Assembly: GCF_013167455.1 (NCBI RefSeq)
Contig: NZ_CP038328.1
From: Escherichia coli O157:H7
Lineage (GTDB): Bacteria > Pseudomonadota > Gammaproteobacteria > Enterobacterales > Enterobacteriaceae
Reading direction: 5' to 3' (one strand)
Length of the DNA: 64,000 bases
A program made the position numbers. Of the stretch, positions 24,001-30,000 are shown in pieces; position 1 is the first letter of the stretch; the number at the start of each line of letters is the position of its first letter.

Positions 24001-27000
24001 GACATTTTTACAACATTGTCAGTGCATTAAGGCGGGATGTTTTGGGCTGACGCCAGTCCAGTTTATCGAGGAGCATTGCCAGCTGCGAGCGGGTAATGGA
24101 TACCTTACCGTCACGCACCGCAGGCCAGATAAACTGGCCTTCCTCCAGACGTTTGGTGAACAGGCACAGACCATCAGCATCAGCCCACAGAATTTTAATC
24201 GTGTCACCCCGTCGGCCGCGAAAGATAAACAGGTGACCGGAGAAGGGGTTCTCATCCAGCACATGTTGTACCTGTTCTCCCAGACCGTTGAAGGATTTAC
24301 GCATATCAGTAACGCCGGCAACCAGCCAGATTCGAGTGCCTGATGGGAGCGAGATCATCGTCCCCTCCCGGTCAGTTCACGGATCAACACCGTGAGCAGC
24401 TCTGGTGAAGGATTTTCCAGCGTCATGTTACCGTGGCGGAACTCAACTTTACAGGAACTGGCACTGACTGTGCTTTGTGAAGGAGTGGATAAAAGCGGAG
24501 TAAGAGCCGCCATAGGCTCTTTCTGCTCATCAGGCGTTATCTCAACAGGTAATAATTCAACGCCAGCGCCAGAAGAGGTTGTTACCGGAAGACGCCGCGA
24601 TATACGCCTTTCGTTCTGCCAGAGCCTGAGCCATTTGAACAGGAGGTTATCATTGATATCGTGTTCCCGGGCAATACGGGCAACAGAGGCTCCTGGTTGT
24701 GAAGCCAGTTTAACCATTTGAAGTTTAAACTCATTTGAAAATGATCTGCGGGGTTCTGAGGATAATATTTTCTGTTCCATAACAGGTGTCCACTAGTTGA
24801 AAAGGTGGGCACCTACGTTACCAATACTGGCTTAATGGCTACATACGGCGGTCAGTTTACGCTTACGAGAAAGAAGCGGTCCGCCGGTCGTCTGTTTTGA
24901 CTCGCAGACCGGACGGGCCCTCAGATATCCTGAGGCCTGGCTGCAGGGCTGGTGTGGCGGTACGCTGGTGAGTGACGGATACAGCGTGTACAAATCTCTG
25001 GCGGATAATGACCCCGGTATTACATCTGCCTGTTGCTGGAGCCACGCAAGGCGCGGTTTCGCAAATCTGTATAAGGCCAGCAGGGAGCCCCGTGCAGCCA
25101 TGGCGCTGAGAAAAATCGCGGGTCTTTATCGCATTGAGAAGTTCATCCGTGAACGTCCTGTGGAAAAAATACGGCAATGGCGACAACGGTATTCCCGGCC
25201 GATAGTGAATGACCTGTTTGCCTGGCCTGAAGAGCAGGAGCCGTGCTGTCCGCCCGACGGACCACTAAACAAAGCGATTAATTATATCCTGAACCGGCGC
25301 GATGAACTGAGCTGCTTCCTGAGTGACGGAGCCGTGCCCCTGGACAACAATATCTGCGAGCGTGCTATCCGCCCGGTGGTCATGGGGCGGAAAGCATGGT
25401 TATTCGCCGGTTCACTGATGGCCGGGAACCGCGCGGCACAGATAATGAGCCTTCTGGAAACGGCAAAACGTAATGGTCTGGAGCCGCATGCCTGGCTGAC
25501 AGACGTTCTGACGCGTCTACCGGAGTGGCCGGAAGACCGACTGGAAGAGTTGCTGCCCCTTGAGGGATTTACCTTCTCCGGGTGAGTGATACCTGCCATC
25601 AGGTGTTCGTGCAGCGGGCCATAACCCGCAGTCGGGAGTTGAACGCCTGACGACAGGAAATGAGCCAGAGCAGCGACCACGCGGGCTGACAGTGAGTCAG
25701 AACCTGAATCAGCCCGGAGCCATTCCCGGGGCTGTACTTCATCACCTGCCATCAGTACCCGTGTCAGTACTTCGCGACCTGACGCAATTACCCGACTCAG
25801 TTCTTCAGAACCCGCCTCCGATACCAGCCTGGCGGTCGCCCCTGTGCAACAAAATAAATCAACCATCGTCAGACGGTGATCAATCGTATGCGCTGCCAGT
25901 GGCTCGCCTGAAAAATGCGTCAATATGAGTTCGCCGGAACAATACCTCAGTTCTTCAGAACCCGCCTCCGATACCAGCCTGGCGGTCGCCCCGGCGCAAC
26001 AGAATAAATCAACCATCGTCAGACTGCGATCATTCGTATGCATCGCTGATGATGCGCCCGAAAAACGCGTCAATATGAGTTCGCCGGAATATTACTGACG
26101 ACACGGTTTGTAGTTACGTTCCTTCGGTGAGTGAGTACCTGTGCGTCAGGGTAACGCAATCAGTTCAGGTTTAGCGGGGTGTCAAGTCGGTTTGGCTAAC
26201 CGACCGCAGAATTAACTGTACCTTTAAAGGTCGCCCCCGATATATCTGCCTGTCAGACATATCGCCGATTCGGTATCTCACTACATAAAACTCCTTAAAA
26301 AACAATGCGATTCTGTTGGTACGAAGCTTTCAGTAAGTCAGTCCGGAGAAGCGCCAGTACGATACAGAATGAGGTTGAAAAAAACGTTCACGTCTGGTCA
26401 CTTCTTCAAATGTTAAAAAACATCTCGTAAAGAGCCAGTTTATGCGGGTTCGTTGAGTAGACGTGCGAGCGTCACTTTGTCAGCTTTAACGCTGACGAAA
26501 GTGACGCCCGCACAGCTTCAAACTCCACATGCACACGCAAGCGACCAAATTTCAAATGGTCTTATGCCGTGCGCACAGTCATAAGAAGCGCATGCGGAAA
26601 GTCAGAAAATATCTTAAGACGCAGATTTTAAAGGCGTTTTTATGCCAGTCTGCCGGGAATACACAGTAGTCCGGTTGTCCGGAAGCACCACGGTAATCCG
26701 AAGGAAAAATCAACGTACCTCAATCACCGTAGTGATATCCGTTCCCAGAGGCTAAACGGATGTACCACCATAAAGGCATCCTCTTTCAGGCTACGAGGAT
26801 ATTGCAATCACCCGAAGGCGTTTCTCTCAGATTGCTGAAACATTGGCTGGCAGTCACCCGAAGGCGTCCCTCTCAGACTGCTGGAACATTGGCTGGTCGC
26901 AAAAGCGACAGTTAATGCAAATACAGGTTAACAAAAAGGGAAATCTGCCGTCAACCCAACCATATGAACATGTTGATTTCATTATGAATGTGATGTTCTA

Positions 27001-30000
27001 ATATAAATTAATCAGTAACTTCATAAAAAGAATATAAGAAACAGATAATGCATGTATTTACACACATATCAGCACAATGATAGATTACCACCCCAGAAAC
27101 ACGATAAAGGTATAATTATGGAATTTTCCGTTATTTTTTTCTGGGTTATCACTGGTCTTATTACCATCTTATTCTTAAAATCAATAATAACCGATCTAAT
27201 AAAAAACCTAAACAAAACAGACATAGCGTTATATATATTGGCATTTTTATCAGCCGGATATACATTCCAGTATATTTACAATGACAATATATTTTCAGAA
27301 CTATGGGGAGTTGGCCTGTTTGTTACTCTGATAGTACTGAATATAGTATTTAATCTCTTTTTTAGACTCTTATTCATTCTCTCGAAAATGATATTAATGT
27401 CACGACATATAAGAAAGATGCAAAAAAAACTAAAACAGACGTCTGTGCCTGATTTTATTTATTATTCAATAGAAAAACACAACAAATATCCCATATATGT
27501 ATTACACATGCCATCAAACAATATAATTGAAATAGGCTACAATATAATAAACACCGATCTGGTCATTGGCGAAAAAATTCATTTCAGGACACTAAGCAAT
27601 CGTTCTTTATATTTTAACCTCACCCACCCCCCATTAATCGCCACAATAAAAGATGATGTGTTTTGCACTCTTCATGATTACTATAACCACAATAATGAAA
27701 CGAAATCCACTATTGACAATTACATATCAAAAATAAAGGATAATCATAATACCCCATGGTTATTAAACAACGAAAATGTTCAGGAATAAAAAAAAAGAGA
27801 CAATTCCCGAGATAAAACAAAAGAGCATAAACATATGAACCGGAAATTCTATTTCAAAAATATCCTGTGGGGAATGTGCCCCATTATAATATCCATATTG
27901 CATCTGATATATGACACACCAACAGAAGCATCGATAAAAGTTGACTTATTTCTGATACTCAGTGGCCTGGCCCTTCCTTGTTCAATATACCTGACAAAAA
28001 CAATCACACTAAAATACACATCCATATCATTCTGGAAAAAACCTCTTTTCTGGTCTTATGGTATATATCATTTTCATCTTGTTTATATAATGATATGTAT
28101 AGTTTTAGCAATACCTTCTGCAATTATCGTTTTATTCTTTCACTTTTATCAAAACATCACCAGAAACTGGAAGTGACAACCGCAATAATGAACATAAAAA
28201 GGCAAATCAGAATGGCAGTAAATCAATAAAGTACCATTTCATATGAATCATCAGAAAAACGGTGGACGCGACATCCAGCACGAGGCAAAACACAGCAACA
28301 AAATAAGCCGGATATCGCGCCCTGTACTTTTCTAACTCAACTCCCGGCATTGTGCAAGTTTTAATCGCAGGTGGATTCAGAGCCACGCCCCCATTGATTC
28401 AGCCTGAAGACACGTATATCCTTGGAGAAAGCAGGAATCTCATTGCTGTGAAATTCCTTACAGAATCTTCAGCCCCATTTTATGGGGCTTTTTTTGGTGC
28501 CCCCACGCTGTTACCACACTTTCGGGATGCGAATAAAAAAGCCCACAGTTTTTACACTGCGGACTTTTGTTTTTTCTTTGTGATTTGTGTGCAAGGGTGC
28601 GACTTTCGACCGAACCTTTGGCAACCGGATAGCGGGGACTGTTGTCCCCGCTGCGGTTTCTTACGGTTTACACTGCAAGAACGCCGCAATTTCCGACCAC
28701 ATGAAGCTTACCCTGAATTCACACGGTGATGCGTGTAACACCCAGACGGTCAGCAACATGGTCAGGCATAACATGCCCACAATGATCGTTTTTTGCGGCA
28801 TAGCACTTGCTCCTTTTACAGAGAGGCGCTAACCTTCCACTTGCTGAAGGTAGATGGTCAGGGCCTCGGGTTAACGTTTAAGTTGACTCGGGGCCTTTCC
28901 ACATCCGGCCTTCAGGTAATCCTTCCAGCCGTCAGCCGAAAGGCACCCGCGCGTAATGTACTGGTTTTCAGAGAGGTCCGCAATCTTCCGGTGACGAGAT
29001 CATCTGCACACGCCCCGGTGGGACGGGCTAACGGTATATTCAGGTGCAGGATCTCTCTGTCTGGTGCGTTTTTAAATTGTCAAACGCACCCTGGCGGCAA
29101 AATCAGCCACCTTTTTTCGCATCAACAAAACGCCCAAAACGCTGGGTAAAGCGTGCAACATTACCTTCTGAAGCGACAGTTCTCAGTTTACCTGTATAAA
29201 ACGGATGCGACTTAGAAGAAACGTCAATTGTAACATATGGGTAAGTTACACCATCCAGTTCAATTACCCGGTCAGTTTTGATCGTCGAACCGATCCTGAA
29301 GTACTCATCAATACTGGTATCGTGAAATACTACTGTACGGTATTCCGGATGGATATTCGGTTTCACAACAGTTTTCCCCCTTTAAGTGAAAATTCCGCAT
29401 AAAGGTACATATTCAGACGGTCAGATTCAACTGTCTGTTCTTATAACCTCACTCTCTTTCAGTATTACAATATGTTATATAATTATAAACTGGACTTCCC
29501 GAAAAAATCCATTAAATAAGAAGCGAGCCGTTGCGGAGGCTTGCTCTCTCCTTTAACCTCATGTGCAATATCCGTAACGCGCTCACATAAATCATCATCT
29601 GATAATATAACAACACCCATTATTTTATTCTGACCTAAAAACTTCTTATGAAATAAACGTTTACCCGACGTATCTGATCCCGCTGTTTTTACCTGTATCC
29701 TTTAACATACTTGAGAAGCCCGCTGAAAAAATATACCGTAAAGGCGGTTTCTCTGTCTTCCATAAACCTGTCGGATAAGAAGGGCATTAAATGAAAACCA
29801 AAAAAGTTATGATGATTGCACTGGTCAGCTCTGCGCTGGCTCTTTCAGGATGTGGAGCCATGGGCACAGCGATCAAAAAACGAAATCTGGAAGTAAAAAC
29901 CCAGATGAGTGAAACCTGAGGTAGCCTGAGTTTAACGGACACTCCTTCCTGAAATAGAATGGCATCAGAAGGAGCTAATAATGAGCAGAAAAACCCAACG

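Follow-up and report, generated by a model that had tools for sequence, protein, structure and literature searches.

A stretch of 64,000 nucleotides of Escherichia coli O157:H7 (contig NZ_CP038328.1 of assembly GCF_013167455.1; referred to below as the window) represents the tellurite-resistance/urease island of O157-type Shiga-toxin-producing E. coli (STEC). It contains an interval of some 950 bp (26100-27050) that an initial annotation, made from the sequence alone, had described as repeat-rich and non-coding. We conclude that the minus strand of positions 26095 to 26955 carries in full a conserved non-coding module from an integrative and conjugative element (ICE) of the SPI-7/PAPI-1 type, which is now orphaned. 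The module consists, in this order, of a sigma-70 promoter, the STAXI RNA motif, a long hairpin, the EFASI RNA motif and a further helix at its 3' side. We consider the identity of the module practically certain and its action as an RNA likely. The proposal that it forms a cis-acting leader, rather than a trans-acting small RNA (sRNA), is tentative, its chances being judged slightly short of even.

Both motifs are curated Rfam families and published primers for them match the window, so that the central finding has to be regarded as already known. What may be new is the conserved promoter, the succession of terminator, promoter and STAXI, the three STAXI copies that each head a gene block, the long hairpin, the extra helix of EFASI and the AAGGAG motif at its edge. 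The same may hold for the carriage of the module on small rolling-circle and ColE1-type plasmids and for its fixed orientation on the latter. The novelty of the promoter, the terminator layout, the three-copy layout and the plasmid carriage was judged against passages of the family description by Weinberg et al. 2010 (PMC2864571). For the annotation the result is a correction, in that an 'empty' 950-bp gap of the island turns out to be a known Rfam motif pair from a decayed ICE, truncated by an insertion sequence (IS) of the IS66 family. The wider value is modest and lies in testable leads on the function of STAXI, described in 2010, and EFASI. If the module indeed controls the genes by which an ICE establishes itself, it would bear on the way in which elements that carry virulence and resistance traits settle in new hosts.

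STAXI, the long hairpin and EFASI

An Rfam scan had been proposed as a check in the initial annotation, and it returned a full-length match to STAXI and a match to EFASI just below the cut-off. More specifically, STAXI (RF01728) was aligned over model positions 1-153 of 153 with a cmscan score of 134.3 bits (gathering score 40.5, E = 1.5e-29). The two-copy 46-bp tandem repeat that had been noticed at 26808-26896 was essentially right: Tandem Repeats Finder reports 26804-26896 with a period of 46, 2.0 copies and 89% matches, and a separate repeat search places the copies at 26804-26849 and 26850-26895. The array is larger than was described, and a third, degenerate unit (~26759-26803) and a 5' hairpin (26895-26910) belong to it too. 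Thus, the 46-bp repeat corresponds to units 1 and 2 of the three STAXI units. All positions are listed in Table 1.

The units follow the pattern X5-N-S6-UGAGA-Y5-GCCUUCGGGY-S6', in which X5 pairs with Y5 and S6 with S6' to form an H-type pseudoknot around a UUCG hairpin. The pairing was evaluated in 19 distinct units taken from 10 of the 13 compiled STAXI copies (the window, ICEs and plasmids, covering three genera). It was present in 95.5% of the cells, with changes on both sides at 10 of the 14 pairs. The covariation score of 0.597, compared to 0.314 in shuffles, was reached by none of 500 shuffled sets, and sliding the pairing partners by 1-3 columns reduced the pairing to only 33-53%. Moreover, the outer and inner stems (18 unique units) contained 19 G-U pairs and not a single A-C pair, from which it follows that the strand that folds is the Rfam-sense strand, i.e. 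the minus strand of the window.

In the STAXI family the pseudoknot unit is repeated at least two times and usually three, and the UUCG loops have been used as an argument that STAXI is an RNA (Weinberg et al. 2010, PMC2864571). The window copy has two canonical units and one degenerate unit. The family name itself refers to neighbouring genes for Ssb, a topoisomerase, anti-restriction proteins and a XerDC-type integrase. Such neighbours, i.e. ssb and the genes for topoisomerase III, anti-restriction and integrase, are missing around the window copy, which is surrounded by IS66 fragments and hypothetical genes; they are present in the homologous intact ICEs L004, L005, L006 and L132 (the compiled loci are denoted by L and a number). 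The window copy shares with the family the full-length, high-scoring match, the UUCG-looped tandem pseudoknots, the occurrence in Enterobacterales and, in its homologues, the expected gene neighbours; judged by sequence and structure it is a member that has lost its context.

The array is preceded by a sigma-70-like promoter with the -35 element TTGACG (26954-26949), a spacer of 18 nt that ends in TG and the -10 element TAACCT (26930-26925). The predicted transcription start is close to 26918, which leaves about 7 nt to the first position of the STAXI model. In a comparison that covered Escherichia, Pantoea, Rahnella and Acerihabitans, about 14 of 17 copies had such a promoter, with 11-14 nt between the end of the -10 element and the first STAXI hairpin. 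In L132 and L004 the promoter is found directly behind an intrinsic terminator and is followed by STAXI, which implies that STAXI opens a new transcription unit. The putative transcript of 827 nt, which would begin at the promoter and cover the rest of the module, folds with a z-score of -6.2 relative to shuffles. A terminator scan of 25900-27200 yielded no terminator-like site, and no clear terminator was found in the intervals between STAXI copies and the next gene, where L004 has two marginal terminator-like sites.

Expression of the motifs has been reported in the literature. STAXI RNAs were detected in Pectobacterium by strand-specific RNA sequencing, once as the '3' UTR of topB' (PMC4710047), and both STAXI and EFASI were detected in a STEC strain by reverse-transcription quantitative PCR (RT-qPCR) on DNase-treated material (PMC12370729). 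The four STAXI and EFASI primers published in the latter study match the window exactly and yield the stated amplicons of 131 bp and 89 bp. The strand-specific G-U pattern, the UUCG loops and the conserved promoter point to an RNA, to which the published detections add. The initial annotation had offered three options, a small RNA, a plasmid leading region and a plasmid origin region, and its interpretation as a whole is partly supported. The small RNA came closest, considering the two Rfam candidate-sRNA families on the minus strand, the conserved promoter and the exact primer matches. The leading region was a fair guess as to the classes of genes involved (ssb, integrase, anti-restriction), which plasmid leading regions have as well, and was mistaken as to the source, which is an ICE of the SPI-7/PAPI-1 type and not an F-like plasmid. 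For an origin region we found no support.

A further conserved component of the module is a long hairpin. Its 39-nt palindromic core (26469-26507) is exact; it occurs once in the window, where none is expected by chance. The stem, which had been put at 15 bp, was underestimated: on the minus strand it comprises 23 pairs, interrupted by one bulge. The minus strand folds with -44.1 kcal/mol (z = -8.3) and the plus strand with -38.8 kcal/mol (z = -7.8), and none of 200 shuffles folds as well. The lower stem, with 10-bp arms GCGTCACTTT and AAAGTGACGC, is conserved in sequence across seven genera and has the consensus (G)GCGTCACTT(T/G)...(A/C)AAGTGACGC(C). The top is variable and carries a small hairpin of its own, and compensatory changes are found at the top pair and at the outer pairs. 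In 17 of 18 loci, from seven genera, the hairpin is located 92-236 nt 5' of EFASI. The flanks showed no conserved sequence when compared across genera, and the Rfam scan gave no family that matches the hairpin. A search with a loose stem pattern (14-16 palindromic bases) in one genome per species returned mostly unrelated matches. Among the matches listed, all nine from Enterobacterales, which came from Citrobacter, Photorhabdus, E. albertii, Enterobacter and Acerihabitans, had an EFASI of 80-120 bits beside the hairpin.

Three other readings of the palindrome were rejected. It has no T-run on either strand and the scan of 25900-27200 found no site, which argues against an intrinsic terminator. 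It occurs once in the window and at a median of one place per genome (689 genomes), unlike a dispersed repeat of the REP, BIME or ERIC type. A lineage-private insertion was suggested by a first alignment; this was rejected because other copies share the conserved stem with a diverged top, and it is L003 that has a deletion. The homology between modules of the window type and those of the L002/L006 type breaks exactly inside the hairpin, which thus forms a mosaic junction. In L006 a gene for a MOBH-type nickase is situated about 25 kb from the hairpin. Between STAXI and the hairpin the module contains a segment (26522-26572) that is nearly invariant across the E. coli copies and unrecognisable in those of Pantoea and Rahnella, so that its conservation within E. 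coli may reflect shared ancestry only.

EFASI (RF02957) was matched over model positions 1-133 of 133 with 48.9 bits (E = 2e-8). Over 500 nt, the region 26095-26589 shares 76% identity with L004 and L005. The EFASI copies of these two pass the cut-off with 55.4 and 55.9 bits, and in view of the homology we treat the window copy as a slightly decayed member of the family. Its start at 26283 lies 476 nt behind the end of STAXI at 26759, both on the minus strand, and the same order on one strand is found in L002, L004-L010, L050, L051, L105 and L107. According to the Rfam text, as far as it is quoted in PMC12370729, EFASI follows STAXI at a distance of a few hundred bases and precedes integrases. 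In line with this, 9 of the 13 chromosomal homologues have an open reading frame (ORF) of the Integrase_1 type, recognised by its conserved N-terminus and confirmed by Pfam for L004 only, that starts 54-139 nt after EFASI. The window copy differs from the family in its score and in that the integrase is gone.

Both edges of EFASI carry a further feature. Directly 5' of the motif, and overlapping its first bases, the window reads AAGGAGTTTTATGTAG, in which a strong Shine-Dalgarno-like AAGGAG is succeeded by a start codon and then by a stop codon. Nearly all loci have a purine-rich motif of this kind where EFASI begins, and no conserved peptide was found after it across the loci. At the 3' side an extra helix connects a CYCYGGCGC stretch, unpaired in the Rfam model, with sequence 17-40 nt past the end of the model. 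The helix covaries in 13 of 18 loci, for instance as CCCTGGCG/CGCCAGGG, CTCCGGCGTG/CACGCCGGAG and CGCCCCGATG/CGTCGGGGTG. The window version has a one-base bulge and was read by eye, the ungapped search not having reported it; its 3' strand is formed by the last bases of the conserved module. Considering this covariation beyond the end of the model, the Rfam model of EFASI looks truncated, and it appears incomplete in that the upstream hairpin, the AAGGAG-like motif and the 3' helix all lie outside it. All three are better accounted for by a cis leader of the integrase gene than by the 'trans sRNA' that Rfam suggests.

Other RNA motifs accompany the hairpin and EFASI in some of the homologous loci. 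A C4 antisense RNA (RF01695) is found about 0.3-1.7 kb away in L050, L051, L061, L062 and L127, which are islands of Photorhabdus, E. albertii and Enterobacter; its occurrence near STAXI has been remarked before by Weinberg et al. 2010 (PMC2864571). In L106 a radC RNA motif adjoins EFASI.

Table 1. Position of the module components and of related features (window coordinates, except for the last three rows, which are given in the coordinates of the respective locus)
Feature	Position	Strand	Basis or remark
Sigma-70-like promoter of the module	26925-26954	-	read from sequence; position conserved
STAXI RNA motif (RF01728)	26759-26910	-	cmscan, unit layout, covariation
STAXI 5' hairpin	26910-26895	-	
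STAXI pseudoknot unit 1	26887-26850	-	
STAXI pseudoknot unit 2	26841-26804	-	
STAXI unit 3, degenerate	~26797-26759	-	
Segment between STAXI and long hairpin, with small hairpin GACCATTTGAAATTTGGTC	26522-26572	-	alignment of E. coli copies
Conserved long hairpin	26463-26513		fold z-scores, conservation 5' of EFASI
Shine-Dalgarno-like AAGGAG (26296-26291), then ATG TAG (26286-26281)	26281-26296	-	sequence
EFASI RNA motif (RF02957)	26130-26283	-	covariance model, slightly sub-threshold
3' partner GTGTCGTCAG of the extra EFASI helix	26095-26104	-	pairs with 26150-26141 CCTGACGCAC
IS66-family terminal region (boundary, outside the module)	25590-26094	+	homology stop at 26095; pRK1 match
STAXI locus in ICE L132	26840-27310		
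STAXI loci in ICE L004	7130-7300, 9352-9602		
STAXI loci in ICE L006	6428-6581, 9219-9378		

Origin of the module and its carriage on small plasmids

The homology of the window to the modules of intact ICEs runs exactly from 26095 to 26955. Diverged copies of the module are present in the intact elements L004, L005 and L006, which have ICE genes of the TIGR03756/03757 type and TraG_N. The L006 element is an ICE of the SPI-7/PAPI-1 type that spans about 74 kb from tRNA-Ser to tRNA-Phe and contains parA, a SPI-7-type dnaB, topB, ssb and genes for a type IV pilus, a nickase/helicase and an integrase. In this element the transfer genes and cargo, including a gene for a type B ribosomal protein L31, are followed by a first STAXI copy (STAXI-a), the hairpin and EFASI, then by an Integrase_1/Phage_int_SAM_2 protein of about 300 amino acids (aa), a second copy (STAXI-b) and a group of small genes that includes ArdA, ArdC and DUF1281. 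From STAXI-a to the anti-restriction genes the order is shared by L004, L005 and L006. The terminator of topB is followed by a third copy (STAXI-c), which has 96% identity to STAXI of the window and precedes the STY4534-ssb genes. Thus, one SPI-7-type ICE has three STAXI copies, each with its own promoter and two of them directly behind an intrinsic terminator. One copy stands before the STY4534-ssb block, one before the hairpin-EFASI-Integrase_1 unit and one before the block of ArdA/ArdC/DUF1281, and every copy in the ICEs has the same orientation as the genes it precedes. The Integrase_1 protein and its small neighbour gave no match in NCBIfam or PHROGs.

In the window the module stops where IS66-family sequence begins. 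The counterpart of 25590-26094 directly follows the IS66 transposase gene in plasmid pRK1. Within this terminal region Tandem Repeats Finder detected a 150-bp tandem duplication (25796-26089; two copies, 88% matches), and the pRK1 match spans 357 bp against the 505 bp of the query, so that pRK1 seems to hold a single copy of it. An ORF of 263 aa (25282-26073, minus strand) that runs through the duplication was discarded as spurious, having no Pfam match and overlapping the IS66-family sequence. A tblastn search of the window for a remnant of the Integrase_1 gene found none. Considering the homology stop at 26095, the missing integrase remnant and the adjoining IS66 end, it was the IS insertion that cut the module from its gene: it left the module whole to the base and took the place of the Integrase_1 gene.

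A paralogue of type B ribosomal protein L31 is encoded at 29103-29366 (minus strand) as cargo of the island. Its counterpart in the intact ICE L006 (11453-11716) occupies the corresponding place with 83% identity at the DNA level, which supports a common descent of this part of the island.

The complete cassette of promoter, STAXI, hairpin and EFASI was also recovered from small plasmids: L002, a 3.1-kb rolling-circle plasmid of E. coli with Rep_1, L007, a 5.3-kb plasmid of E. coli, and the ColE1-type plasmids L008 from Pantoea and L009 and L010 from Rahnella. In none of these five is EFASI followed by an integrase gene or by another clearly co-oriented gene. The module of L002 is 89% identical to the STAXI-a module of the ICE L006, and its STAXI part is 99-100% identical to the b and c copies, which indicates recent exchange. 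On each of the three ColE1-type plasmids the cassette points in the direction of RNAI and against that of RNAII.

Function and competing explanations

As we picture it, the module would work as an RNA, its own promoter giving rise to an untranslated leader with extensive structure. STAXI would then be a promoter-proximal leader cassette that heads each 'establishment' block of the ICE (ssb, Integrase_1 and anti-restriction), a reading suggested by its position at the 5' end of transcription units, the three blocks that it heads and the lack of a clear terminator in between. The repeated pseudoknots probably lend these transcripts a shared property, such as the binding of a common factor or the protection or advancement of the transcript, and the hairpin with EFASI would be the specific leader of the integrase gene. 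The relic in the O157-type island probably still yields a non-coding RNA, without a gene to control.

A number of observations weigh against such a leader. The start and the 3' end of the transcript are, for the window copy, putative, and a simple promoter scan did not call the promoter, as its weak -10 element TAACCT matches at only 3 of 6 positions. EFASI scores 2.3 bits under its gathering score of 51.2. The folding energies of the hairpin have no consistent strand preference among the loci, and a stem that is conserved in sequence without such a preference fits recognition by a protein of DNA or RNA alike. The 100% identity among STEC copies reflects the spread of the island and does not prove selection. 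We are aware of no binding partner and no phenotype that has been reported for either motif. The published RT-qPCR in STEC was not strand-specific (PMC12370729). Finally, the stand-alone copies on small plasmids are not explained by a pure cis-leader role and favour a trans-acting or self-contained function.

It is for these plasmid copies that we place the cis leader no higher than just under even and regard a trans-acting sRNA as its main rival. STAXI and/or EFASI would in that case be stable RNAs that act on targets or proteins of the host or the element, independently of the neighbouring genes; the Rfam text, in the part quoted in PMC12370729, reads EFASI as a trans sRNA and the type label of STAXI is likewise sRNA. 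This would explain why L002 and L007-L010 keep a complete cassette without a co-oriented gene downstream; the plasmid-ICE identity of 89-100% implies a recent transfer as a self-contained unit, and the cassette is intact in the O157-type island despite the loss of its gene. Moreover, both RNAs were reported to be among the most abundant in STEC vesicles (PMC12370729). Nevertheless, every STAXI on a chromosomal element stands in front of a block of genes in its own orientation, from which no clear terminator separates it, EFASI keeps its short distance to an Integrase_1-type ORF in the majority of the loci and is connected to the downstream sequence by the extra helix, the window scan revealed no terminator that could form the 3' end of an sRNA, and no target is known. 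We therefore consider an independent sRNA unlikely. That the module is functionless in this genome, an ICE-derived relic carried along with the tellurite/urease island, is a possibility to be taken seriously, albeit one we do not expect to hold. The downstream gene is lost, IS66 debris adjoins, EFASI has dropped under its cut-off, the surroundings are a patchwork of IS elements and pseudogenes, and the 573 records with at least 99% identity across STEC serotypes are consistent with the spread of the island. On the other hand, the promoter is intact, as are all STAXI pairs, the hairpin and the additional helix of EFASI; the IS inserted without taking a base from the module, and both RNAs were detected in a STEC strain (PMC12370729). 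This explanation is plausible, concerns present function only and is compatible with the identification of the module.

The remaining explanations assign the function to DNA. Single-stranded DNA (ssDNA) was raised as an alternative for STAXI by Weinberg et al. 2010 (PMC2864571), and the module could accordingly be an element for conjugative transfer or replication, be it an ssi/sso priming signal, an oriT hairpin or an Frpo-like promoter. The neighbouring genes indeed act on DNA (ssb, topB, integrase, ArdA/ArdC), and repeated, structured non-coding elements in front of ssb and anti-restriction genes are reminiscent of the Frpo/ssi elements in the leading regions of F and ColIb-P9 (PMC11541004). 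The module is also found on small plasmids without mob genes (L002 is typed 'mobilizable', yet no relaxase is listed) and its orientation to RNAI does not differ among the three ColE1-type plasmids. Frpo, however, is a long imperfect DNA hairpin on the transferred strand with the -35 and -10 elements in its stem (PMC11541004), whereas the conserved upstream promoter of the module is of the ordinary sigma-70 duplex type. The 201-nt promoter region does not fold as DNA (z = -0.56; 48 of 200 shuffles fold as well), and the conserved structure lies downstream, on the mRNA-sense strand, which led us to reject an Frpo-like promoter. The sense strand of the ICE is not the expected template for early transcription either. 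For the ColE1-type plasmids, the orientation of RNAI combined with the textbook scheme of ColE1 replication makes the sense strand the template of the leading strand and not the exposed template of the lagging strand. A search of the rolling-circle plasmid L002 for the pC194-type nick site CTTGATA and a pUB110-type origin, which would have fixed the displaced strand, found neither. A role for the complement as a G4-type ssi/sso signal, an idea prompted by the constant direction of the cassette on ColE1-type plasmids and by d(C-GAA-G) loops complementary to UUCG, was rejected on account of the G-U pairs (G-T in DNA), which occur in the outer and inner stems on the Rfam-sense strand only, without A-C pairs. 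Together with the UUCG loops, which favour RNA, this makes an ssDNA element very improbable. A somewhat better case, though still an improbable one, can be made for the palindrome, with or without its flanks, as the duplex binding or recombination site of the Integrase_1-family tyrosine recombinase, which the plasmids would use in trans for resolution or co-integration. The arms are conserved in seven genera around a variable centre, the hairpin accompanies EFASI and the Integrase_1 gene even where STAXI is missing, the mosaic junction falls exactly within it, and its folding energy is without consistent strand bias. The core sites of tyrosine recombinases have overlap regions of 6-8 nt, whereas the arms are here separated by 16-20 nt that form a small hairpin themselves. 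Moreover, the centres differ between the supposed partners, the compensatory changes that keep the pairing also fit an RNA stem, the Integrase_1 protein is without a match in NCBIfam and PHROGs, and the covariation of the STAXI pseudoknots is left unexplained.

Known systems provide two further comparisons. The type III antitoxin RNAs ToxI and CptI, which belong to mobile elements, follow a promoter and are built of tandem direct repeats, some tens of nucleotides long, that form one pseudoknot each; in this respect STAXI is alike. They differ in that there is no evidence of processing between the STAXI units. A gene of the ToxN/AbiQ/CptN type was not found after STAXI copies, the ORFs behind STAXI-b in L004-L006 being without a Pfam match and none of them ToxN-like, and in the window STAXI is followed by the hairpin and EFASI instead of a toxin gene. 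A type III toxin-antitoxin array was rejected on these grounds, with no toxin domain downstream by Pfam and no ToxI-like match in Rfam. The cer/Rcd locus of ColE1 resembles the module as a non-coding plasmid region with a Xer-type recombinase, a small RNA and a fixed orientation relative to the origin (PMC2831885), and differs in having no similarity to STAXI-EFASI in sequence or structure. The Rahnella plasmids hold a cer-like site besides STAXI-EFASI, from which it follows that the two are not equivalent.

Returning to the RNA leader, a more far-reaching version would be that the cassette is a portable, self-contained RNA device that co-ordinates the burst of establishment genes (ssb, recombinase, anti-restriction) of a SPI-7-type ICE after transfer, an RNA-level counterpart of Frpo, with small non-mobilisable plasmids having captured it so as to tap or titrate the same factor; we consider this a long shot. 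By analogy with the repeat-pseudoknot antitoxin RNAs, the tandem pseudoknots might in a variant of this idea sequester a protein of the host or of a defence system, as a decoy with several binding sites.

Island setting and neighbouring features

The studied interval is 100% identical in E. coli O157:H7 PV15-279 and in many strains of O145, O111, O103 and O45. It was found in 689 of 5426 complete E. coli genomes, and the records with at least 99% identity cover many STEC serotypes, an identity that is attributed to recent spread of the island rather than to demonstrated selection. The element is thus not private to this strain, the outcome that the initial annotation had named as speaking against it: the STAXI-hairpin-EFASI module, or its hairpin-EFASI part, is also present in Pantoea, Rahnella, Citrobacter, Photorhabdus, Enterobacter and Acerihabitans. 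The absence of a convincing ORF was confirmed as well. The longest ORF confined to 26100-27050 encodes 52 aa, the RefSeq annotation has no feature beneath the interval in any listed genome or plasmid record, and the AAGGAG motif is not followed by a conserved peptide, on which grounds a protein-coding reading was rejected.

The region around the interval is a mosaic of IS elements and pseudogenes. On one flank, in genomes of the PV15-279 type, IS66-family elements are piled up downstream of the ter genes; the other flank has a hypothetical gene, a Hok/Gef gene, the type B L31 gene, a traT fragment and the ure operon. The traT and hok-like remnants reported nearby are therefore real, and a match to the sok antitoxin RNA (28790-28948, minus strand; 50.5 bits against a cut-off of 59) adjoins the annotated Hok/Gef gene. 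Directly upstream of the module promoter lie two AT-rich ORFs on the plus strand, of 245 aa (27052-27789) and 113 aa (27835-28176). Neither has a Pfam match, and a shorter version of the former is present in RefSeq as a hypothetical protein.

Three other features of the window deserve mention. Among IS elements, about 17 kb from the module, a gene is annotated as 'TOTE conflict system archaeo-eukaryotic primase domain-containing protein' (L001 37713-40073), the window position of which, extrapolated from L001, is probably ~43800-46170. Beside the urease operon the 5' ureB sRNA family (RF02514) was matched at 33631-33909 on the plus strand (86.5 bits, gathering score 40), and Esr41, a known sRNA of enterohaemorrhagic E. 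coli, was recovered at 3481-3554 on the minus strand (108.6 bits, gathering score 102).

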